DNA of 64,000 nucleotides, taken from positions 79 through 64,078 of the forward strand of contig JAZUBM010000006.1 of NCBI GenBank assembly GCA_045638485.1. Direction: 5' to 3'. Position 1 is the stretch's first letter; the number at the start of each line of letters is the position of its first letter. Below the pieces are notes generated by a model that was not told the DNA's origin, made no database searches, and saw only the letters and a program-made list of their open reading frames with translations. The position numbers and the translations under genes are program-made. The DNA comes from Lentihominibacter sp. (lineage in GTDB: Bacteria > Bacillota > Clostridia > Peptostreptococcales > Anaerovoracaceae). This document shows, in pieces, positions 2,783-47,390 of this stretch.

Positions 2783-3940
2783 ATGGAAATTTGTAGAGAC
2801 AGTAATGTTTGCGGTGGTTGCGTCTACCAAGGCGTACCGTACGAAGAACAACTGAAGAATAAGGCAGGCGAAGTAAAAGGTCTGCTTGATAAAAAAGATA
2901 TTCGTTATGGTGAGTTCTTTGATATTGAACCATCTCCAAACAGATATCATTATAGAAATAAAATGGAATATACCTTTGGTGACATGGAAAAGAACGGCCC
3001 GACTACTCTTGGCATGCACAAGAAAAAGCATTTCATGTCTATAATTACAGTAGAGCAATGCCAACTGGTTCATGTTGATTTCAATACAATCCTTAGAGGT
3101 GTGTTGGATTTCGTAATAGAAAGAGGCTATTCCCATTACCACAAGAAGAACCACAGAGGTCTTATGAGACATCTCATAGTAAGAAGAGGAGTAAGAACCG
3201 GTGAAATCTTGGTAAATGTAGTAACAAGCTCTGAAGAAGGTTTTGATGAAGACGCATTTGTAGAAATGATAAAGCAGCTGCCACTTGAAAACAAGGTGGT
3301 GGGCATTTTGAGAACCATCAACGACAGATTGGCCGATGCGGTATACTGTGATGAGCTGAGAGTTTTAGACGGCAGAGATTACTACATGGAAGAAATCCTT
3401 GGTCTCAAGTTTAAGGTGAGTGCATTCTCATTCTTCCAGACTAATGTTGAAGCTGTAGAAAAACTTTACTCATATGGTCTTGAGCTTATTGATGATTTCA
3501 GCAACAAGACTGCATTTGACCTTTATTGTGGTACAGGTACCATAACTCAGACTTTAGCGAAGAAAGCCAAGAAAGTTATAGGTATAGAACTGGTGGAAGA
3601 AGCTGTAGAGGCTGCTAAAGTAAATGCTGAGCTCAATGGTCTTGATAACTGCGAATTTATCGCAGGAGATGTATTTGAAGTACTGAAGACTGTGGAAGAG
3701 AAACCCGATGTAATCGTTGTGGATCCTCCTAGGATGGGAATCAAACCTGATGCTCTCGATAAGATTATAGGATATGGTGTGGATCAGATAGTTTACATAT
3801 CATGTAATCCTAAAACACTGGTTGAGAATTTGTATTATATGCAGTACTACGGATATGATGTAATTTCAGTGAAACCATTTGATAATTTTGCCGGCACTAA
3901 GCATTGTGAAGCTGTAGCGTTGTTACAGAAAAGAAAGTAA
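2783..3940 (+). CDS. RlmD/TrmA-family uracil-C5 RNA methyltransferase lacking the TRAM domain
   Basis: C-x5-CGGC Fe-S motif, YRNKMEY, SAFSFFQTN, DLYCGTGTI, VDPPRMG, YISCNPKTL and HCE. Confidence 0.88.
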   Translation: MEICRDSNVCGGCVYQGVPYEEQLKNKAGEVKGLLDKKDIRYGEFFDIEPSPNRYHYRNKMEYTFGDMEKNGPTTLGMHKKKHFMSIITVEQCQLVHVDFNTILRGVLDFVIERGYSHYHKKNHRGLMRHLIVRRGVRTGEILVNVVTSSEEGFDEDAFVEMIKQLPLENKVVGILRTINDRLADAVYCDELRVLDGRDYYMEEILGLKFKVSAFSFFQTNVEAVEKLYSYGLELIDDFSNKTAFDLYCGTGTITQTLAKKAKKVIGIELVEEAVEAAKVNAELNGLDNCEFIAGDVFEVLKTVEEKPDVIVVDPPRMGIKPDALDKIIGYGVDQIVYISCNPKTLVENLYYMQYYGYDVISVKPFDNFAGTKHCEAVALLQKRK

Positions 3941-3969: not shown

Positions 3970-3996
3970 AAATCCCGGTTTATTCAACCGGGATTT
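3970..3996. terminator. Bidirectional intrinsic terminator
   Basis: AAATCCCGGTT-tattc-AACCGGGATTT between convergent genes. Confidence 0.8.
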
Positions 3997-4041: not shown

Positions 4042-4674
4042 TTATTCTTCGATTCCGTTCCATTCTTCCATATCTCTGTTCCATTCAGGATAATCAACCA
4101 GAACGTCAGCGCAAGGGTAGTCGATACCCAGGATGCAAACTACAGTACCTTCACTGTCATAAACAGGAGCGAATGCTGACCAGCAGATGTCGTGGTTTGT
4201 GCCAGCTTCATCATTGATCCAAGCTGATCTAGCAGCAGCAGTAGCGCCGTCCCAAGCTTCTGTGAACTGAACTTCCCAACCATAGTCTACGCCCCAGTCA
4301 TCAGGATCTTCGCATCCATCAACTGTGATAGCAAAGCTACCATCGTAACCAGCTTCAACGTCATATGTAATAACATCGTCTACTAATGGTGACATTGCAT
4401 AGATATAAGTTGCACCACATTCTTCTCTAGCATCCCAGAGATCCTGCATAATATCATTGTATTCAGCATAGTCTCTAGCTTCTCCTGAATTCAGCAGAGC
4501 AGCGTATTCATCTCCCCAGCCATCTTCAGTCAGGTCTGCAGCATACTGTTCAACATAGCTTGAAGCCTGATCTTTAACTGCCTGCACGTCAGCAGGAACT
4601 TCTTCTGAACCGCCGCATGCAGCCAGTCCAAATGCGAGTACGAGTGCCATAATTGCGATTAATAACTTTTTCAT
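4042..4674 (-). CDS. Acidic lipoprotein consisting of a stand-alone Cache/PDC-like sensor domain
   Basis: Signal peptide with lipobox LAAC20; GGAGG RBS; YIYAM...ITVDG...WSAFAPVYDSEGTVVCILGIDY matches the PDC/Cache fold pattern of chemoreceptor and kinase ectodomains. Confidence 0.7.
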   Translation of the reverse strand: MKKLLIAIMALVLAFGLAACGGSEEVPADVQAVKDQASSYVEQYAADLTEDGWGDEYAALLNSGEARDYAEYNDIMQDLWDAREECGATYIYAMSPLVDDVITYDVEAGYDGSFAITVDGCEDPDDWGVDYGWEVQFTEAWDGATAAARSAWINDEAGTNHDICWSAFAPVYDSEGTVVCILGIDYPCADVLVDYPEWNRDMEEWNGIEE

Positions 4675-4814
4675 AATTACCTCCTATAATGGAATAAATA
4701 AATGTTATAGCAATTTTATCAAATAAAGTGTTGAATTGCAACTTCAAATGTAGAATATTCAGTATTTTTACAATAATTTTGTGGTATAATGTTGCTGTAA
4801 ATCGGAGGTGAAAA

Positions 4815-5255
4815 ATGAAGACGAAAAATGACGTAATGGAGAGGCTTAAAATGATAGCAAAAGAAGTGCAAGACGATGAAGCTTCTAAGATGAACGCAAT
4901 GCTTGCACCCGAACCATATGACTGTGATGTGGAGACACTAACCACTATTATCAGATATAAAGCACAACCATGGGAACAAAACCATAGAGGAGAAGTTCAC
5001 GGAGGTGCTGTTGCCGCCATGTTCGATACTGCGATGGGTATGAGCATTATAGGTCTTTCAGATCGTGACTCCGTTGCAACTGCGGACCTTGATGTTAGTT
5101 TCATAAGACCATTCACCGGTGAATATTTCTTATTTGAAGTGAATGTAATCAGATTGGGAAGAACGATGGCCAGAGTCAGAGCATTGGCCAAGGATCAGGC
5201 TTCAGGTAAAATACTTGCTTCTGCAACATCGAACTTTGTATATACTGACAGATAG
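4815..5255 (+). CDS. PaaI-family (hotdog fold) thioesterase
   Basis: NHRGEVHGGAVAAMFDTAMG, TADLDVSFIRP and GRTMA motifs; GGAGGTG RBS. Confidence 0.88.
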   Translation: MKTKNDVMERLKMIAKEVQDDEASKMNAMLAPEPYDCDVETLTTIIRYKAQPWEQNHRGEVHGGAVAAMFDTAMGMSIIGLSDRDSVATADLDVSFIRPFTGEYFLFEVNVIRLGRTMARVRALAKDQASGKILASATSNFVYTDR

Positions 5256-5333: not shown

Positions 5334-6755
5334 TTATTTTGTTATAAGCCCTTCAAGGAAATTACAGATGTTTGAAAGGGCAGCTTCGCCATGGTGTATA
5401 TTACACTGATATGAGATAATATTCAAAGGTGCCTTTGCTGCGAAAATTTCACATTCGCTGCTATTCATAGTATATTCGAATATTGTTTCTTCTGCTCCGA
5501 GTGTGTCAGCGAAGTATGTGGCAAGTTCAGTATTATCTTTAGTAGGCCATGTGAGTTTTGTTTCAGATTTATCATAGTCAATATCGCAAAGACCTGAAGT
5601 GGTTTCATAAACTTCGGAGAGTTCATCAAGAACTTCTTTGTCAGTAGCTCTAAATGTTGCTAACAGTTCAAACTGACCATCATTTGTAGATACCTTTGAG
5701 ATTTCAGCCAGAGCTAAAGATTTTTCCTCTTTTTCTTCTTCTGAATCCTTGTTCTCTTCTGCAACTTCTTCTTTATGATATTTTCCTGTCTTAAGAGTAT
5801 ACATAAGACTGATTATATTATCGCTTGATTCACTGGATATAACAACATCAGGCATATCTGTTTCGGTGAAAGTATACACGAAATTATCTTCAAGCTTTTC
5901 AAATTTTTTCTTCATACTATTGTATGAACTTTTGAATTTCTTTTCAAAGCTTGATACATCGTTGGCATCTATAACAACAACTGCAGTTGCTGAAGTAGGA
6001 ACATATCCGGAGGTGTTTTCACATTCAAAAGAGGCTAATTGGAAAAGCTGCCCGGAGCTTTTTTCTGTAGCCAGCAGATTACCAATAACTTCTACCGGGT
6101 TAGGGTAATCACTATCATCTTGATTGAATGGATCATGATAACCGGATATTTTCATTGTTATGGCATATGCAAAAGGATAATGAGGTGCTGCTTCTTCAAG
6201 CTGAGTTGTCATGGAAGCTGTCAATGCATTAGAACCTGATGTATAAAGTTCGATATCATCATTTTGCTTCATGTTTATGAAATGATCGGTTACAACGTAT
6301 TTAGAAGGAACAGCCTTTGCACCATTAAAAGCACCATTATCTGTTTCTGTAATTATTAAAGTTATATCTCCATGCTCCAAAGGTCCCAGCAAACTTGTCA
6401 ATGAGATAGAAAGACTCTGTAGGGAATTACTAAAGTTTTTAGTGTCTATCGTGCACTGAAGTGTAGTCGAATCTGCTTTTTTTCCGCCTTCTGTTGCAGG
6501 GTTTTTAAGAACCATATAGCTTGACTCGTTAGAGATGACTTTTATATCATTCTTACTTGCCCATGACAGAAGATATTCGGAAATAAGTTCGTATTCACCG
6601 GTGGAACCGGAAAACGTAGATGTCAACTCCTCATAAGTTGAATTTAGTGATTCGTTAAGCTCCTTTTGTCTGTCAGCACTGGCCGAACCGCAACCTGATA
6701 GTACAGTTGAAAGCACTAATACACCAAGTATAAAAAATACGAAAATCTTCTTCAT
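5334..6755 (-). CDS. Lipoprotein, degenerate M20/PepD-like peptidase homolog (probably catalytically inactive)
   Basis: Lipobox LSGC22; YLLSWASKN..KNPATEG..TLQCTID, EHGDITLIITETDNGAFNGAKAV and YVPTSATA align with PepD blocks, but the metal ligands are substituted. Confidence 0.65.
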   Translation of the reverse strand: MKKIFVFFILGVLVLSTVLSGCGSASADRQKELNESLNSTYEELTSTFSGSTGEYELISEYLLSWASKNDIKVISNESSYMVLKNPATEGGKKADSTTLQCTIDTKNFSNSLQSLSISLTSLLGPLEHGDITLIITETDNGAFNGAKAVPSKYVVTDHFINMKQNDDIELYTSGSNALTASMTTQLEEAAPHYPFAYAITMKISGYHDPFNQDDSDYPNPVEVIGNLLATEKSSGQLFQLASFECENTSGYVPTSATAVVVIDANDVSSFEKKFKSSYNSMKKKFEKLEDNFVYTFTETDMPDVVISSESSDNIISLMYTLKTGKYHKEEVAEENKDSEEEKEEKSLALAEISKVSTNDGQFELLATFRATDKEVLDELSEVYETTSGLCDIDYDKSETKLTWPTKDNTELATYFADTLGAEETIFEYTMNSSECEIFAAKAPLNIISYQCNIHHGEAALSNICNFLEGLITK

Positions 6756-40143: not shown

Positions 40144-41267
40144 AACTTGAATTGATAGCAACAGCTACATTTGGACTTGAAGCAGTAGTAAAAAGAGAAA
40201 TAGAAGCGCTAGGCTACAAAATCATCAAAACAGAAGACGGTAAGGTCACCTATATGGGAGACGAAAGAGCAATCGTTAAATCGAACTTATGGCTGAGAAG
40301 TGCTGATAGAGTATTGCTGAAAATGGCTGAATTCAAAGCTGTAGAGTTTGAAGAGCTGTTTCAGCAGACAAAGGCGCTCCCGTGGGAAGAACTGATACCT
40401 GTAGACGGAAAATTCACAGTAACAGGTACTTCGGTAAAATCTAAGCTCCATAGTGTTCCTGCTTGCCAGAAGATAGTAAAAAAAGCAATTGTCGAGAAAC
40501 TGAAGGAATTCTATGGACTGGAAGTTTTCGAAGAAACCGGGGCTGAATATACAGTAAAAGCAACCATCCTTAAGGATAGAGTTACCTTAACAGTTGATAC
40601 TACAGGTGCAGGCCTCCATAAGAGAGGATATAGGGTTGCAGATGTGGCAGCTCCTATTAAGGAGACATTGGCAGCAGCGATGGTTCAACTGAGTTTTTGG
40701 AACAAAGACAGAATACTGTTGGATCCATGTTGCGGATCCGGAACAATTCCTATTGAAGCAGCCATGATTGCAAGAAACATTGCTCCCGGTCTCAATAGAA
40801 AATTTGCTTGTCAGGATTGGGAACTGATAGACGAGAAAATATGGAAAGAAGAAAAGAAGGCTGCTTTCGAAGCCATTGACTATGATACCGAACTTAAAAT
40901 TTACGGCTTCGATATCAACAGAAAAGCTGTAGATGCTGCAAGGGAAAATGCTGAAGAAGCAGGAGTAGATGACTGCATAGTGATTAAAAAGGCGGATGCT
41001 TCCAAACTGAGATCCATAGGCGATAACGGTATAGTATTAACCAACCCACCATATGGTGAACGTATCGGAGAGGAAGAAGAAATTCTTAAAATATACGAAG
41101 GCTTTGGTAAGTTCTTCAGAGAAAACCCTGACTGGTCGCTGTTCATGATAACAACTGACAAGGAGGCCGAAGAGAAAATCATGGGAAGAGAGGCCAACAG
41201 AAGAAGAAAGTTATATAACGGTAGATTAGAAACTTGTTATTATCAGTTTCATGGGGAAAGAAAATGA
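40140..41267 (+). CDS. THUMP-domain class I SAM RNA methyltransferase (RlmL/YpsC-like)
   Basis: ATATFGLEA, LHKRGYR, APIKETLAAA, DPCCGSGTI and TNPPYGER. Confidence 0.9.
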   Translation: MKLELIATATFGLEAVVKREIEALGYKIIKTEDGKVTYMGDERAIVKSNLWLRSADRVLLKMAEFKAVEFEELFQQTKALPWEELIPVDGKFTVTGTSVKSKLHSVPACQKIVKKAIVEKLKEFYGLEVFEETGAEYTVKATILKDRVTLTVDTTGAGLHKRGYRVADVAAPIKETLAAAMVQLSFWNKDRILLDPCCGSGTIPIEAAMIARNIAPGLNRKFACQDWELIDEKIWKEEKKAAFEAIDYDTELKIYGFDINRKAVDAARENAEEAGVDDCIVIKKADASKLRSIGDNGIVLTNPPYGERIGEEEEILKIYEGFGKFFRENPDWSLFMITTDKEAEEKIMGREANRRRKLYNGRLETCYYQFHGERK

Positions 41268-42736
41268 ACATAACAGTAAACAGAAATGAAAAGATACCTC
41301 TGTACATGCAGATATCAGGACAGATAAAAAGCATGATATTCAGCGGTACTCTCGTTAATGGATGCAGGCTTCCGTCGGAGAGATGTCTTGCGGAAAGTCT
41401 GTCTGTACATAGAAATACTGTCATAAGAGCTTATACCGAACTGAAAGACGAAGGCCTGATTACTTCTTATCAAGGCCAATGCTACTTGGTTAACTATGGA
41501 ACCATGTTTTATGGCATGATCAAGAAGCCCGTAAATTGGGAATCTCTCATTAAAGATGAGTATATCAGTTTTGACAGTGATTTCGATGAATTGTTCAGGA
41601 AAACTTATGAAAGCGATATTATATCTTTTGGTGGCGGATTAGCTGCAAGAGAATTATATCCTAGAGAAGAAGTTGTCTCGGTCTTTGATCGTATGCTTGA
41701 AATGCGAAAAGATAAGGCTTACTTTTACACGCCTTACCAGGGTGATTACGAGCTGAGAAAGGAGATAGTTTCTTTTCTCATGTCTAAAGGAATTATGACC
41801 GGGCCGACTAACATACAGATGTTTACAGAAAATAATCAGGCACTTGACTTTATCATGACTCTCATGCTTATGCCGGGAGATAAAGTTATAGTGCCTGAAA
41901 TACTTTCTCCGGATGTTTACAGAGCTATTCAATTTGCCGGAGGACAACTTATTACAGTTCCGATGGATAGTGATGGCATGATGTGCGACAACATAGAAGC
42001 CTTAATTCAAAAGGAAAAACCAAAGTTTATATACGTTGATTCAAGTTTTAACAATCCTACCGGAGTTGTGCTTTCTCTTGAAAGAAGGAGAAAACTGTTG
42101 GAGATGTCATATAAGTATCGCATCCCTATAATCGAAGAAGACGAAGGCTCTGAACTTTATTACGATGTAAATAGAATACCTGCTATAAAATCAATGGATA
42201 CAGGAAATAATGTTATATATATGTACTCCTTCGCCCTGACTATGATGCCCGGGGCAGGCATGTCATTTGTGATAGCTGATCATAATGTGATTAAGCGAAT
42301 GAGTGAACTGATTTCAATGAAGGTGGTATCCCTGGATTGGGTGCCTCAGATGTTGCTTTTGGAATATATGAGAGAAGGCACTTTATATGATAGGCTTGAA
42401 GGGTTCAGAAACATTTGCAGAGAGAAACGAGACTTGATGTATCGATGGTTTGAAAAAGAAATAGAACCAACAGGTGCAAAGTGCGAAAAGCCGGTAGGCG
42501 GAGTGTATCTTTGGATCAAGTTGCCTGAAGGAATGGATGGAAAGGCTCTTCTTAGAGAAATACAAAAGGAAGGGGTTACCTTTATTCCGGGGTATGTTTT
42601 TTATCCGCAAAAGCATAAGGGGAATAACCGAATAAGGCTTAATTTTTCTTATCCTACAAAGGAAGAAATTGTGGTTGGTATGGAAAAATTGGGAAGAATA
42701 ATTAGATGCACACAACTGAAAATTCAGAAAAAATAA
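41264..42736 (+). CDS. MocR/GabR-type GntR regulator with a degenerate PLP site
   Basis: wHTH PLYMQI..LPSER.LA..L.VHRNTV..AY.EL; aminotransferase-like domain FNNPTG, IIEED and IRLNFS; SFSK is replaced by SFAL. Confidence 0.88.
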   Translation: MNITVNRNEKIPLYMQISGQIKSMIFSGTLVNGCRLPSERCLAESLSVHRNTVIRAYTELKDEGLITSYQGQCYLVNYGTMFYGMIKKPVNWESLIKDEYISFDSDFDELFRKTYESDIISFGGGLAARELYPREEVVSVFDRMLEMRKDKAYFYTPYQGDYELRKEIVSFLMSKGIMTGPTNIQMFTENNQALDFIMTLMLMPGDKVIVPEILSPDVYRAIQFAGGQLITVPMDSDGMMCDNIEALIQKEKPKFIYVDSSFNNPTGVVLSLERRRKLLEMSYKYRIPIIEEDEGSELYYDVNRIPAIKSMDTGNNVIYMYSFALTMMPGAGMSFVIADHNVIKRMSELISMKVVSLDWVPQMLLLEYMREGTLYDRLEGFRNICREKRDLMYRWFEKEIEPTGAKCEKPVGGVYLWIKLPEGMDGKALLREIQKEGVTFIPGYVFYPQKHKGNNRIRLNFSYPTKEEIVVGMEKLGRIIRCTQLKIQKK

Positions 42737-42892: not shown

Positions 42893-43888
42893 ATGGCAGT
42901 AAATTTAAAAGGAAAAAGTTTTTTAACTTTGATGGATTTTACGCCGGAACAGATTAGATATATGCTGGATCTGGCAAAAGACTTGAAGGACAAGAAAAGA
43001 TCGGGAATAAGAAATGATCTTTTGAGAGGAAAGAATATTTGTCTTCTTTTTGAAAAGACATCAACGAGAACAAGATGTGCTTTTGAAGTGGCATGTCATG
43101 ATGAAGGAGCTCATGTAACATATCTTGATTCAAAAAGTTCTCAGATGGGAAAGAAAGAATCGCTGGAAGATACAGCAAAGGTTCTTGGCAGATTCTTTGA
43201 TGGTATTGAATACAGAGGATATGACCAAAAGGTTGTTGAAGATTTGGCTAAGCATTCTGGAGTTTGTGTATGGAACGGCTTAACTGACGTAGATCATCCA
43301 ACTCAGATTCTTGCTGACATGTTAACAATTGAAGAACACATTGCGAAGCCTCTCAACAAAGTAAAGGTAGTATTCGTTGGAGATGTTAGAAACAATATGT
43401 CTTATGCGTGGATGTACGGATGCGCTAAGATGGGAATGACTTTTGTAGCATATGGTCCTCAAGAACTTTGCGAGCAAGTTGATGAGGATGTAATGAGAAG
43501 AGTAAAGGAAGTTGCTGATTATACCGGTGCTACTATTGAAGTAAGATCTGATGCGGCTTGTCTTGAAGGTGCGGATGTAATTTATACAGATATTTGGGCA
43601 TCCATGGGAGAAGAAGACCAGATTCCTGAAAGAGTTAAGCTGTTGACTCCATATAGAGTAGACATGGATATGATGAAAGCGACTAAAAACGAAGATGTGA
43701 TATTCATGCATTGCCTGCCGTCATTCCATGATTTTGAAACTACAATGGCATCAACCCAGAGAGACTTGGGATACGATATCAGAGAAGTAACAGATGATGT
43801 ATTTAGAAGCAGATATTCAAAAGTATTTGATGAAGCAGAAAATAGATTACACACAATCAAAGCAGTAATAGTAGCAACATTAGCATAA
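42893..43888 (+). CDS. argF: Ornithine carbamoyltransferase, copy 1 (catabolic context)
   Basis: [21 protein letters not shown] and MHCLPSFH. Confidence 0.95.
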   Translation: MAVNLKGKSFLTLMDFTPEQIRYMLDLAKDLKDKKRSGIRNDLLRGKNICLLFEKTSTRTRCAFEVACHDEGAHVTYLDSKSSQMGKKESLEDTAKVLGRFFDGIEYRGYDQKVVEDLAKHSGVCVWNGLTDVDHPTQILADMLTIEEHIAKPLNKVKVVFVGDVRNNMSYAWMYGCAKMGMTFVAYGPQELCEQVDEDVMRRVKEVADYTGATIEVRSDAACLEGADVIYTDIWASMGEEDQIPERVKLLTPYRVDMDMMKATKNEDVIFMHCLPSFHDFETTMASTQRDLGYDIREVTDDVFRSRYSKVFDEAENRLHTIKAVIVATLA

Positions 43889-43928
43889 TAAGGGATATTG
43901 TATCTGAGAAATAGAAAGGAGGGTTATT

Positions 43929-45146
43929 ATGAAACCCGGAATCAACAATTACTCAGAGATAGGTAAGCTTAACAAAGTGCTGCTCCATAGAATTGGAGAT
44001 GAAATCGAAGGTTTAGTGCCCGATAACTTTGAAAGACTACTCTTCGACGACATCCCTTATTTAAAGGCGGCTCAACAGGAACACGATAAGTTTGCAGATC
44101 TGTTGAGAGAAAATGATGTTGAAGTTATTTATTACGAAGAAGAAACTGCGAAAGCTCTTAAAGACGATAAGGTCAGAGAAGAGTTTGTAAAAAAATTCGT
44201 TGCAGACAGTGATATATATTCCGAAGCGGTTAAAGAGGGCCTTGAGGAATACCTAATGTCAATGACACCTAGGGAAATGGTGAAAAAGGCAATATCCGGC
44301 GTTAAGAAAAAAGATGTAATCATCAAGTCAAATTCTTTGGCAGATTATATAGATGCAGGTTATCCTTATCACACCGACCCTTTGCCGAATCTATATTTTA
44401 CAAGGGACCCGGGAGCATGTATAGGTAATGGTGTAAGCATACACCATATGAGTACAGAAGCAAGAAGAAGAGAATCGCTTTTGCTTGAGTATATGTATAA
44501 ATATAATAGGGATTTTGCACCTGAGGGAACACCTGAGTGGTATGACTACGACCATGAGTTTTCCGTAGAAGGCGGAGATTTCCTAGTACTGAATAAAGAA
44601 ATAGTGGCCATTGGCCTTTCACAAAGAACTACTGTTGTGGGTATCGAAAGATTTGCAAAAAACATACTCAACAAATCCTCATTCAAGAAGATTTTGGTTT
44701 TCGACATTCCTAAGAGAAGAGCTTTTATGCATCTTGATACAGTATTTACTATGGTGGATTATGATAAGTTCACAATTCACCCTGAAATTGAAGGTCCTCT
44801 GCAACTTTATGAAATCACACTGGATAAAAGTGGAGAAACTCGTTTTTCCAGCATTCAAGATGAGTTGTCAGGCATTTTGAAAATGGAGCTTAAATTACCT
44901 GCTGTAGATTTAATCAGATGTGGCGGTAATGATACTCAGGCGGCACAGAGAGAACAGTGGAATGACGGTTCCAATACTCTTGCAATAGCACCCGGAGTTG
45001 TGGTAACATACGAAAGGAATTATGTTACTAATGATCTACTGGATAAAAAGGGCGTAAAAGTTCTTACCATACCTAGTTCCGAACTTTCCAGAGGAAGAGG
45101 CGGTCCTAGATGTATGAGTTGTCCTGTAAACAGAGATGATCTTTAA
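43929..45146 (+). CDS. arcA: Arginine deiminase
   Basis: SEIGKL..VLLHR, LLFDDIP, PNLYFTRD, EGGD, MHLDTV and LSRGRGGPRCMS. Confidence 0.97.
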   Translation: MKPGINNYSEIGKLNKVLLHRIGDEIEGLVPDNFERLLFDDIPYLKAAQQEHDKFADLLRENDVEVIYYEEETAKALKDDKVREEFVKKFVADSDIYSEAVKEGLEEYLMSMTPREMVKKAISGVKKKDVIIKSNSLADYIDAGYPYHTDPLPNLYFTRDPGACIGNGVSIHHMSTEARRRESLLLEYMYKYNRDFAPEGTPEWYDYDHEFSVEGGDFLVLNKEIVAIGLSQRTTVVGIERFAKNILNKSSFKKILVFDIPKRRAFMHLDTVFTMVDYDKFTIHPEIEGPLQLYEITLDKSGETRFSSIQDELSGILKMELKLPAVDLIRCGGNDTQAAQREQWNDGSNTLAIAPGVVVTYERNYVTNDLLDKKGVKVLTIPSSELSRGRGGPRCMSCPVNRDDL

Positions 45147-45188
45147 GCATGCGACAAAATTAAAAATTATATCGAGGAGATGATAAAC

Positions 45189-46136
45189 ATGAGCACGGAA
45201 AAAATTGTTATTGCATTGGGAGGCAATGCTCTTCAGTCAGGAAACGGTCCTGCTACAGCTGAAGCGCAGTTAGAAGTCGTTAAGAACACATGTGAACATA
45301 TTGCAAAAATCAGCGATATGGGATATGAAATCGGTGTTGTTCACGGCAATGGACCTCAGGTTGGAAGAATCGTACTGGCGTCAGAAACAGCAAAGGACGT
45401 AACTCCTCCAATGCCTTTTGACGTGTGTGGCGCAATGTCTCAAGGATATATTGGATATCATATACAGCAGTGCTTGAAGTATGCACTGAAGGAAAAGGGT
45501 AAGGATATGCCTGTAGTTACATTGGCAACTCAGGTAGTTGTTGATGCTGAAGATCCTGCTTTCCAGAAACCTACTAAGCCTATCGGTCCTTTCTATACTG
45601 AAGAAGAGGCTAAGGCGCTTGAGGCTGAAAAAGGTTATTCAATGAAAGAAGATGCAGGAAGAGGATACAGAAGAGTTGTAGCTTCACCAATCCCTAAAAA
45701 AATCGTGGAAATAGATGCAGTCAAGCAGCTTTGGGATAACTGCGTAGTAATTACTTGCGGAGGCGGCGGCATTCCGGTTGTAGAAAAAGAAGACGGAAGA
45801 CTTGAAGGTGTTGCTGCTGTTATCGACAAGGACTTCGCTGCAGAACTTCTGGCAGAACAGGTTGATGCAGACGTTCTCATGATTCTTACAGAAGTTGAGA
45901 AAGTTGCCATTAACTTCAATAAGCCTGATCAGAAAGAATTGAGTAGCATGACCTATGATGAAGCCGTTCAGTATAGAGAAGAAGGACACTTCCCTGCAGG
46001 AAGCATGCTTCCTAAGGTAGAGGCCGCAATGAAGTTTGTTGAAGCTTATCCTGAAAAGAAAGCAATCATTACTTCACTGGACAAAGCACTGGATGCTCTT
46101 GAAGGAAAGACAGGAACTGTAATAACTTTTAAATAA
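45189..46136 (+). CDS. arcC: Carbamate kinase
   Basis: VIALGGNAL, HGNGPQVG, GGGGIPV, AVIDKD and GSMLPKV. Confidence 0.97.
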   Translation: MSTEKIVIALGGNALQSGNGPATAEAQLEVVKNTCEHIAKISDMGYEIGVVHGNGPQVGRIVLASETAKDVTPPMPFDVCGAMSQGYIGYHIQQCLKYALKEKGKDMPVVTLATQVVVDAEDPAFQKPTKPIGPFYTEEEAKALEAEKGYSMKEDAGRGYRRVVASPIPKKIVEIDAVKQLWDNCVVITCGGGGIPVVEKEDGRLEGVAAVIDKDFAAELLAEQVDADVLMILTEVEKVAINFNKPDQKELSSMTYDEAVQYREEGHFPAGSMLPKVEAAMKFVEAYPEKKAIITSLDKALDALEGKTGTVITFK

Positions 46137-46155
46137 TAAAAAAGCTTTGATCAAT

Positions 46156-46187
46156 AAAGGCTTCGAGTAAATTCGAGGCCTTTTTTA
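46156..46187 (+). terminator. Intrinsic terminator after arcC
   Basis: AAAGGCTTCGA-gtaaa-TTCGAGGCCTTT plus T-tract. Confidence 0.75.
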
Positions 46188-46192
46188 TTGGT

Positions 46193-46360
46193 TTATGCAT
46201 AAAAAGATGAATATATTCACAAAATTATGCATAATAACCAAAAAAATGTATAAATATTTACAAAAACTGTTGAAATATACATAATAATGTATTATTATAA
46301 TAAAAAATAGTGGTTTAAACACATATTATGCATCTTGAAGTGAATATTCATTAATGCATT
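46193..46360 (+). promoter_or_regulatory. Promoter/operator region of the second OTC gene with palindromic ArgR/ArcR-like sites
   Basis: TTATGCATAA-5-TGAATATATTCA-5-TTATGCATAA; second array TTATGCAT..TGAATATTCA..ATGCAT; TTGAAA-17-TATTAT. Confidence 0.5.
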
Positions 46361-46394
46361 ATAATAAATAATTCAAGACGGGAGAACGATAGAC

Positions 46395-47390
46395 ATGGCA
46401 GTAAATTTAAAAGGAAGAAGCTTTTTAACTCTTATGGATTTTTCACCTGAAGAAATCAGATATTTACTTGATCTTTCTTGGGACCTTAAAGCAAAGAAAA
46501 GAGAAGGTATAAGAAACGAGCTTCTTAAAGGTAAAAACATTTGTCTTTTATTTGAAAAAACATCAACAAGAACAAGATGTGCATTCGAAGTGGCATGCCA
46601 CGATGAAGGTGCACACGTTACATATCTTGATTCAAAGAGCTCACAGATGGGTAAGAAAGAATCATTGGAAGACACAGCGAAAGTCCTTGGAAGATTTTAT
46701 GATGGCATTGAATACAGAGGATATGACCAGAAGGTTGTCGAAGATTTGGCGAAGTATTCAGGCGTATGTGTATGGAATGGGCTTACTGATGTGGATCACC
46801 CAACACAGATTCTCGCAGATATGCTGACTATCGAAGAACACGTAGCTAAACCTCTTAAGAAAGTAAAAGTTGTTTTTGTTGGAGATGTAAGAAACAACAT
46901 GTCATATGCTTGGATGTATGGTTGCGCCAAAATGGGTATGAGCTTCGTAGCATATGGACCTCAGGAACTGATAGATGGCATCGATAAAGATGTAATCGCA
47001 AAGGTGCAGGAAGTTGCTGAATATACAGGCGCTTCAATAGAATTCTGTTCAGAACCATCCTGTCTGGAAGGTGCAGATGTGATTTATACTGATATTTGGG
47101 CTTCAATGGGTGAAGAAGATCAGATTCCTGAAAGAGTAAAAATGCTGACTCCGTACAGAGTTGATATGGATATGCTTAAGGCTACAGGTAATGAAGATGT
47201 TATCTTCATGCATTGCCTGCCATCATTCCATGATTTAGAGACTACAATGGCTAAGTCACAGATGGAACTTGGCTACGATATTCGCGAAGTTACTGAAGAA
47301 GTTTTCAGAAGCAGATTCTCAAAAGTATTTGATGAAGCAGAAAACAGACTCCACACAATTAAGGCGGTAATGGTAGCAACATTAGCATAA
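46395..47390 (+). CDS. argF: Ornithine carbamoyltransferase, copy 2
   Basis: Same motifs as copy 1; collinear 331-aa paralog. Confidence 0.95.

Follow-up and report, generated by a model that had tools for sequence, protein, structure and literature searches.

A hyper-acidic surface lipoprotein of probable Cache fold, encoded as a stand-alone module in Lentihominibacter and related Clostridia

The lipoprotein gene and its product

In this article, I describe a small lipoprotein, P0001, and the protein family to which it belongs. Its gene lies in 64,000 nucleotides of DNA from Lentihominibacter sp. (GenBank assembly GCA_045638485.1, contig JAZUBM010000006.1, positions 79 to 64,078 of the forward strand), the whole of which is called the window here, and an earlier reading of the letters alone (the original prediction) had taken the product to be a detached Cache/PDC-like sensor domain. 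Among the extracellular sensors of prokaryotes, Cache domains form the largest class. The gene and the parts of its product are arranged as follows:

4042..4674, minus strand: lipoprotein gene P0001, 210 amino acids, stop codon included (open reading frame listing and translation; 181 homologs; AlphaFold2 predicted local distance difference test score, pLDDT, 92)
4615..4674, minus strand: signal peptide with lipobox LAAC, with Cys20 predicted as the lipidated start of the mature protein (direct reading; a lipobox-like motif in 96 of 99 aligned members and at nearly all genomic loci)
4525..4593, minus strand: long N-terminal helix alpha1, residues 28-50, corresponding to the Cache hallmark helix and C-terminal in many relatives (DSSP, alignment)
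4099..4524, minus strand: helices alpha2 and alpha2' and the PAS-like alpha/beta core, residues 51-192 (alignments, AlphaFold2, Foldseek)
4045..4098, minus strand: conserved C-terminal tail, residues 193-210, ..YPEWNRDMEEWNGIEE (alignments; pLDDT above 90)

The protein starts with MKKLLIAIMALVLAFGLAAC, in which the lipobox L17-A18-A19-C20 can be read directly. With a lipobox defined as [LVI][ASTVI][GAS]C closing a signal peptide that has a positive n-region and a hydrophobic h-region, all of these parts are found in P0001 (n-region MKK, h-region LLIAIMALVLAFG, lipobox LAAC), and its signal peptide is, as far as the sequence can tell, of the textbook signal peptidase II type, with lipidation predicted; other family members carry signal peptidase I signals together with SLH anchors. 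The signal peptide is also the sole hydrophobic segment of the 210 residues, and about seven linker residues separate the lipid anchor from alpha1. Searches of P0001 against Pfam and NCBIfam saw the signal peptide alone and found no transmembrane helix, HAMP, kinase, methyl-accepting chemotaxis protein (MCP) or GGDEF domain, and no paralog was found within the window. The gene is evidently real, given 181 homologs in one database, 93 representative matches in another and 14 invariant positions across 99 sequences.

The mature protein of 190 residues is extreme in composition, with 46 Asp or Glu against 5 Lys or Arg, an isoelectric point of about 4.05, 9 Trp, 13 Tyr and 5 Cys. It stands first among the 51 proteins of the window both in acidity (net charge -18.6 per 100 amino acids; window median -3.2) and in Trp content (4.3% vs 0.5%), and the acidity is common to the whole family, for which the median is -18.5 per 100 amino acids. 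The original prediction was therefore right about the lipobox, about a very acidic, Trp/Cys-rich 190-residue domain and about the missing transmembrane and output domains, but it had the domain ending in the motif WSAFAPVYDSEGTVVCILGIDY, which is present in P0001 and is followed by a strongly conserved tail of 24 amino acids, PCADVLVDYPEWNRDMEEWNGIEE.

Fold, family and circular permutation

An AlphaFold2 model of P0001, built from the 99-homolog alignment, has a mean pLDDT of 92.2 and a predicted template modelling score of 0.84. DSSP on this model gives, after the signal helix, a long helix at 28-50 followed by helices at 53-63, 72-86 and 135-141, and strands at 90-98, 113-119, 129-132, 151-153, 163-172 and 178-187, the chain ending with a short helix and an ordered tail. 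When the model was compared with the PDB using Foldseek, 49 of the 50 listed matches were extracytoplasmic Cache/PDC sensor domains, including Tlp3, the sCache formate receptors 8PY0/8PY1, DctB, KinD, CitA, WalK and RsbU, and the remaining one was a GAF protein at rank 40; the best match had E = 2e-5 and probability 1.0, and the size-matched CitA domain gave a target-normalised template modelling (TM) score of 0.67-0.69 with a root-mean-square deviation of 4.4. Three structural features define Cache domains (PMC4822843), and P0001 has them all: the protein lies outside the cytoplasm, its core is PAS-like, and a long helix comes before that core. The superfamily is taken here as Pfam clan CL0165, and the long N-terminal helix is absent from PAS and GAF. 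Permuted relatives depart from the canonical order in that the homologous helix is C-terminal, and the context that is typical of Cache domains, although not strictly defining, namely transmembrane flanks and fusion to an output, is not found in this family.

The best explanation overall, to which I would give a probability of about 0.6, is that P0001 is a lipid-anchored, extracytoplasmic, single-domain Cache/PDC-fold protein that acts as an autonomous surface module. Several observations weigh against it. The query-normalised TM score is only 0.34-0.44, a modest value that is attributable to the signal peptide, extra helices and tail carried by the query. No curated Cache hidden Markov model (HMM) in Pfam or NCBIfam reached its gathering score with P0001 or with the family consensus, and Pfam searches of distant members likewise gave no significant match; below threshold, sCache_3_3 matched 15 of the 99 members, sCache_3_2 five and dCache_1 five, the best score being 28.2 bits on sCache_3_2, where the cutoff is 28.4, for the distant member P0143. 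Sequence and profile searches of the PDB gave nothing significant, and their insignificant profile matches were confined to WSAFAPV..G.VV.ILGID, a beta-hairpin common to PAS and Cache domains in general. The extreme acidity, finally, might serve to buffer cations in bulk or be structural, with no specific ligand involved.

An assignment to Cache at the level of sequence has thus failed with Pfam, NCBIfam, the consensus and the PDB alike, and since nothing matched at threshold, Cache homology is inferred from the fold only. The structure prediction recovered the Cache/PDC fold that had been proposed from the letters, while the sCache/dCache HMM search suggested alongside that proposal brought no curated model to threshold; and the string YxY...DG...SAxAPxxDxxGxVxGxLGxD, put forward as a Cache signature, does occur in P0001, but it corresponds to the generic PAS/Cache beta-hairpin and carries no significance with Cache HMMs. 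As modelled, P0001 is a Cache-fold protein and probably a remote member of the superfamily, from a family that is not yet curated.

In structure, the closest known relatives are the sCache_3 (CitA/DcuS) and sCache_2 sensor domains. The sCache_3/PDC domains of CitA and DcuS (PF17203 sCache_3_2; 1P0Z, 8BGB), which are the best size-matched structural matches, likewise consist of a single extracytoplasmic PAS-like core after a long helix. In 2189 of 2499 cases sCache_3 domains lie between two transmembrane helices of histidine kinases (PMC4822843), whereas P0001 is a free, hyper-acidic lipoprotein with an extra conserved C-terminal tail and scores below the HMM threshold; and while CitA and DcuS bind carboxylates through Arg, His and Lys, the P0001 family does not have those basic residues as invariants. 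The sCache_2/dCache_1 ligand-binding domains of chemoreceptors and kinases (8PY0/8PY1; Tlp3 4XMQ; KinD 4JGO; DctB 3BY9) are the top Foldseek matches for the native and the permuted models (E 2e-5 to 1e-3, probability 1.0). They are, however, MCP or kinase ectodomains, many of them double modules, with 9-17% identity to P0001, in which none of their ligand-binding motifs, such as the dCache_1AA amino-acid motif, was identified.

Conservation across the family is strong and site-specific. The 99-sequence alignment has 14 invariant and 30 nearly invariant positions and a 37-sequence alignment has 22 invariant ones; the invariant core residues are Y90, Y92, D119, P124, Y131, E134, Q136, F137, S150, W152, W165, S166, F168, P170, G183, D185 and P187, and in the C-terminal tail W198 and R200 are invariant while N199, D201, W205 and N206 are invariant or nearly so. 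To judge by these alignments, P0001 is under strong purifying selection. Such a pattern bears on the possibility that the protein is simply a non-specific polyanion at the cell surface, serving in Ca2+/Mg2+ buffering, in charge shielding or as a decoy for cationic antimicrobial peptides, with the Cache fold as a mere scaffold and the acidic patch of the PhoQ PDC sensor as an analogy. A net charge of about -18 per 100 amino acids throughout the family, far beyond other proteins of the window, would fit this well, as would the conserved acidic loop DGSEDPDDW and the varied anchors and tandem copies described below, all of which suit a role in providing more surface charge; yet the invariant positions in both alignments are mostly aromatic or polar core residues and residues of pocket type, and this site-specific conservation, together with a dedicated operator-like box upstream of the gene, favours a specific function, so that I consider the polyanion role quite improbable. 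Two of the cysteines also vary together: Cys164 (at the start of beta4, about 4183-4185) and Cys188 (after beta5, about 4111-4113) are both present in 53 members, with Cys164 only in 24, Cys188 only in 1 and neither in 21 (Fisher p = 3.6e-8, uncorrected for phylogeny), and because the hairpin register is expected to place them next to each other, a possible disulfide or metal site is suggested.

The family itself is one of free-standing proteins. A word-seeded search of 5.8 billion proteins gave 181 relatives, and the best 120 of these 181 are mostly 196-252 amino acids long, with Pfam annotation only on two longer proteins (SLH or Cu_amine_oxidN1 fusions). An exhaustive phmmer search of 1.84 billion representatives gave 93 matches, none of which has a kinase, MCP, GGDEF or other signalling output, and since this search had no length limit, receptors would have been seen. 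Genuine relatives are stand-alone proteins of about 200 residues, fused only to wall or membrane anchors and, once, to a peptidase: the longer ones carry N-terminal SLH repeats, the wall-associated Cu_amine_oxidN1 domain or a tandem second copy, P0135 has the order SLH - Cache-fold domain - PA - Peptidase_M28, and P0143 and P0161 are tandem duplicates, the former closing with an acidic linker and a C-terminal transmembrane anchor. Two sets of matches were set aside, namely a GAF match in the tandem protein P0143, which is fold cross-talk, and four very long phmmer matches to SprB/PKD repeat proteins, which are compositional artefacts.

Homologs are thus consistently unfused, as lipoproteins or as wall- or membrane-anchored proteins, and the notion that P0001 is the remnant of a truncated receptor was rejected, its relatives standing alone without output domains in an exhaustive search; neither of the two findings that were to speak against the original prediction, a fold other than Cache or descent from a full-length receptor, turned up. 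Fusion to signalling modules is the rule for Cache domains, at more than 90%, and the published exception, which is also the nearest precedent in architecture, is the stand-alone half of the sCache_heme family (DUF3365/Tll0287), reported in 2026 (bioRxiv 10.64898/2026.02.01.703092). These stand-alone proteins, with published examples including Pseudomonas and Flavobacteria, are likewise secreted single-domain Cache-fold proteins with no signalling genes nearby and an unresolved function, and the sCache_heme family is defined by a CXXCH c-type heme insertion (bioRxiv 10.64898/2026.02.01.703092). Since CXXCH occurs in 0 of the 99 members of the P0001 family, the two are distinct, and they differ also in taxa and in anchoring. 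P0001 is therefore an autonomous surface module of an uncurated family and not a receptor fragment, and that it combines a Cache fold with a stand-alone life at the surface can be held with high confidence.

A scan of one genome each for 185,579 species found 63 loci, almost all of them in Anaerovoracaceae, or 'Family XIII', and in related Clostridia of gut, rumen and digester, to which the family is nearly confined; the carrier genera include Hominibacterium, Lentihominibacter, Copromorpha and Anaerovorax, and a few genomes have two or three paralogs. Rare outliers outside the Firmicutes include L058 (on a Ventosimonas gracilis contig) and L070, and a gammaproteobacterial copy has 40% identity and an ordinary signal peptidase I-type signal peptide with no lipobox, which suggests rare horizontal transfer or contig contamination.

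Furthermore, the family tolerates circular permutation. In many members the N-terminal helix (VPxEVQAVxD...YAxxL) is missing and recurs after the C-terminal tail, and across the family as a whole there are three topologies related by circular permutation, along with intermediates that are tandem duplicates. A first sort by the length of the extensions gave 71 members with the helix N-terminal, 43 with it C-terminal, 4 fused and 17 undecided, and after the undecided members had been placed, the rows of the tree were 79, 44 and 4; an independent classification based on motifs found no single-domain member with the helix at both ends. The C-terminal extension of P0054 aligns to the N-terminal helix of P0012 (BLASTP, E = 4e-4), and a model of P0054 (pLDDT 89.4), whose mature N-terminus begins at alpha2, has a C-terminal helix at 200-220 with blocks scoring 95-99 and again finds Cache sensors with Foldseek, in addition to GAF, IclR-C and LOV-Jalpha folds with C-terminal helices. 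The chain has been cut elsewhere in P0141 (and at loci L064/L065), where alpha1 and alpha2 are both C-terminal (E = 5e-5 against the N-terminus of P0101), and because this breakpoint differs, there have been at least two independent permutation events. P0016, a C-helix form with the WINDEAGDNHDICWS insertion of the window's own clade, groups within N-helix forms. Both arrangements occur within one chain in the tandem proteins (P0122; loci L015, L020 and L025), which are the intermediates expected for permutation by duplication. In canonical Cache sensors the long helix continues from the first transmembrane helix and takes part in signal transmission, and the free relocation of the helix in this family would suit a module that passes on no signal through helices of its own.

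Transcription unit and neighbouring genes

The gene is a monocistronic, regulated unit between a convergent and a divergent neighbour, with the following features around it:

4713..4741, minus strand: predicted promoter, -35 TTGCAA at 4741-4736, 17-nt spacer and extended -10 TG-n-TAAAAT (hexamer 4718-4713) (promoter scan)
4680..4685, minus strand: Shine-Dalgarno sequence AGGAGG (direct reading; conserved in the upstream alignment)
3970..3996, minus strand: intrinsic terminator of the lipoprotein gene, 11-bp stem (5 GC), 5-nt loop and T-rich tail, between the convergent genes
4731..4747, no strand: palindrome TTGAA-N7-TTCAA of the original prediction, overlapping the -35 hexamer and not conserved as a palindrome
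4750..4763, minus strand: conserved palindromic operator-like box aCTGAATATTCta (CTGAATATTCAG-like; also written CTGAAWATTCAG and CTGAAtATTCag), core TGAATATTCA at 4752-4761, about 10 nt upstream of the -35 hexamer
2783..3940, plus strand: m5U-methyltransferase gene, the convergent neighbour
4815..5255, plus strand: 4HBT thioesterase gene, the divergent neighbour
5334..6755, minus strand: 473-amino-acid lipoprotein with lipobox LSGC, a very divergent PepD-like M20 protein (TIGR01893, PDB 2qyv)

The -35 TTGCAA, the extended -10 and the Shine-Dalgarno sequence are conserved across diverged homolog loci, and with the predicted promoter and the minus-strand terminator at 3996-3970 the gene is, as had been proposed, monocistronic with its own terminator. 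The palindrome TTGAA-N7-TTCAA sits exactly where it had been placed, at 4731-4747, but it is essentially the -35 region; it is the single match in the window, yet at least one match arose in 24 of 100 shuffles of the window, and it was rejected as an operator because it amounts to the -35 hexamer with flanks that are unconserved in the closest relatives.

A better candidate is the box aCTGAATATTCta. With at most one mismatch it occurs in 16 of 62 homolog upstream regions where about one would be expected, a roughly 16-fold enrichment, and it occurs in 13 of 59 once the three sequences from which the motif was derived are left out; in most of the 16 regions it lies between -83 and -115. In the 62.8 kb of intergenic DNA of the fetched loci, 14 of the 17 box matches are directly upstream of the lipoprotein gene, and the box is found there also at loci where the upstream gene is co-directional (homologs with the box include those at L008, L009, L017, L019, L020, L022, L027, L030, L032, L040, L047, L052, L053, L056 and L060). 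Given this enrichment and near-exclusivity, the box looks like a dedicated, if still putative, operator of the lipoprotein gene. By inspection against the consensus sequences, its flanks and spacing do not fit a CodY or ARG box well. Sequencing-run matches for the gene were limited to low-share DNA runs, with none among RNA runs.

Flanking open reading frames were clustered at 59 loci, and in most of these the lipoprotein gene is monocistronic: of 57 loci, 39 have a divergent upstream neighbour, and 41 of 57 have a convergent downstream one, close co-directional neighbours being rare (1 upstream, 5 downstream). Even the commonest neighbours occur at no more than 14 of the 59 loci, the most frequent one being a housekeeping gene, and look like clade-specific synteny; judged from their sequences, the other close neighbours appear to be housekeeping genes with no relation to it. 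Among the 59 loci, no gene for a kinase, chemoreceptor or transporter recurs as a conserved neighbour; at a single locus, L004, an amino-acid permease gene follows 92 nt downstream. At 14 loci (including L001/L027, L006 and L007) an operon for acyl-CoA dehydrogenase/EtfB/EtfA (ferredoxin-fused) runs divergently from the lipoprotein gene, and in the clade of the window the divergent neighbour is a 4HBT acyl-CoA thioesterase gene (8 loci); these two acyl-CoA-related neighbours in different clades may represent synteny only. A downstream neighbour set was read as ThiI with sigF/spoIIAB/spoIIAA from the single annotated locus L006. The PepD-like lipoprotein gene, 660 bp from the gene for the Cache-fold protein, recurs nearby in 6 loci of the window clade; its product matches TIGR01893 with E = 8e-25, at 87 bits where the cutoff is 344, and also PDB 2qyv with E = 4e-9.

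These findings bear on the boldest part of the original prediction, a split sensory system in which the lipoprotein binds a ligand and docks on a membrane protein encoded elsewhere, be it a histidine kinase, a chemoreceptor or a transporter. The Cache fold held close to the membrane by a lipid anchor some seven residues from alpha1, the strongly conserved surface tail PEWNRD..EWNG, which could be a docking motif, and the dedicated, conserved operator-like box, which implies a regulated gene, would all agree with it, and accessory lipoproteins of kinases are established (KapB-KinB, Med-KinD, LpqB-MtrB). Similarly, in LuxP-LuxQ, TorT-TorS, Med-KinD and KapB-KinB an accessory or binding protein is separate from the transducer and signals in trans, but the folds of these accessories are different (type I/II periplasmic binding proteins, SH3-like) and their genes usually lie beside that of the partner, whereas P0001 has the sensor fold itself and no conserved neighbour, the lone permease notwithstanding. 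Also, the SLH- and CuAO_N1-anchored relatives sit on the wall and not on the membrane, and the SLH-anchored relatives and the PA-M28 peptidase fusion argue against a strict need to touch any particular partner in the membrane. A split sensory system is therefore a doubtful reading of this locus.

Proposed pocket and ligand, and possible roles

Considering the autonomous Cache-fold module on its own terms, residues Y90, Y92, D119, Y131, E134, Q136, S150, W152, W165, S166 and D185 would probably form a conserved pocket, which is predicted because the invariant residues lie on the sheet and on the beta2-beta3 segment, where PDC domains hold their ligand, and the variable, lower-confidence loop 153-162 may act as its lid. 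The ligand would most likely be small and polar or cationic, such as an amine, a basic amino acid or peptide, or a divalent cation, since the family combines a net charge of about -18 per 100 residues with invariant polar and aromatic residues. Because the linking helix can sit at either end, the protein would be unable to signal through helices of its own, and the bound state might be handed to a partner in trans, or the ligand might simply be captured and held at the surface. Specific binding of a small ligand in the canonical pocket has, in my view, somewhat better than an even chance, and a sensory partner acting in trans is possible but on the doubtful side. A parallel for such an acidic surface may be seen in the periplasmic sensor of PhoQ, a PDC fold next to the membrane whose acidic patch binds divalent cations and cationic peptides, and the surface of P0001 could engage cations likewise; PhoQ is, however, a kinase ectodomain that is neither a sequence match nor a top-ranking structural match to P0001, and the likeness is functional speculation.

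Another role would be nutrient capture, with the protein binding peptides, amino acids or amines at the surface in the manner of a substrate-binding lipoprotein and feeding the extracellular peptidases or permeases of these amino-acid-fermenting bacteria. The P0135 fusion of SLH, domain, PA and Peptidase_M28 points this way, as do the divergent PepD-like (M20) lipoprotein gene in the window clade and the amino-acid permease gene at L004, and a strong promoter and Shine-Dalgarno sequence would fit an abundant surface protein. Each of these links is nevertheless a single case or clade-specific synteny, and ABC, TRAP or ECF transporter genes are not found beside the lipoprotein gene. P0001 matched no substrate-binding protein family HMM in Pfam or NCBIfam, an operon with permease or ATPase genes was likewise not found, and substrate-binding proteins of Cache fold that serve transporters are not known as an established class. 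The idea of co-regulation with arginine catabolism did not hold up either: the box was found in 1 of 60 distinct upstream regions of relatives of ornithine carbamoyltransferase (OTC), with 1.4 expected, and the arginine-regulon idea was rejected. Nutrient capture is thus unlikely on present evidence. A more general suggestion is that these proteins make up a novel functional class of free, lipid- or wall-anchored Cache modules that bind a cationic nutrient or signal on the surface of gut Clostridia fermenting amino acids and either relay it in trans to a transducer encoded elsewhere or serve as substrate-binding proteins of Cache fold; that circular permutation occurred at least twice through tandem duplicates would then be explained by the lack of any coupling to transmembrane segments, and this suggestion is offered as a tentative and rather unlikely one.

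The autonomous surface module is a known fold in an unusual form, being uncurated, always stand-alone, hyper-acidic and lipid-anchored, with natural circular permutants. A heme-less and surface-anchored family of this kind, absent from Pfam and NCBIfam, enlarges the small set of output-less Cache proteins, and its N-helix forms, C-helix forms, second breakpoint and tandem intermediates provide a natural series for separating the roles of the hallmark helix in folding and in signalling. Should a ligand and a partner exist, this would provide a tractable split sensor in poorly studied anaerobes of gut, rumen and digester, and the conserved operator-like box gives a handle on the regulator of the gene; should the protein be merely a polyanion at the surface, the interest would be local.

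The arginine genes of the window have features of their own. An arginine deiminase pathway cluster occupies 42893-47390, with OTC at 42893-43888, arginine deiminase at 43929-45146, carbamate kinase at 45180-46136 and a second, monocistronic OTC gene at 46395-47390, and a MocR-type GntR-aminotransferase regulator is encoded upstream of the cluster at 41234-42736. The box core TGAATATTCA occurs also in the promoter of the second OTC gene (46341-46350), which in addition carries TGAATATATTCA (at 46208) and three repeats centred on ATGCAT; a variant of the box is found ahead of the arc operon (42716). In many OTC relatives (L071-L150, metagenomes; for example L071, L076, L080, L084 and L085) the start codon is preceded, at a distance of 80-130 nt, by paired CTGGCAC...GCTGGCAC-like repeats, which resemble a conserved regulatory site, possibly a sigma-54-type or activator site.

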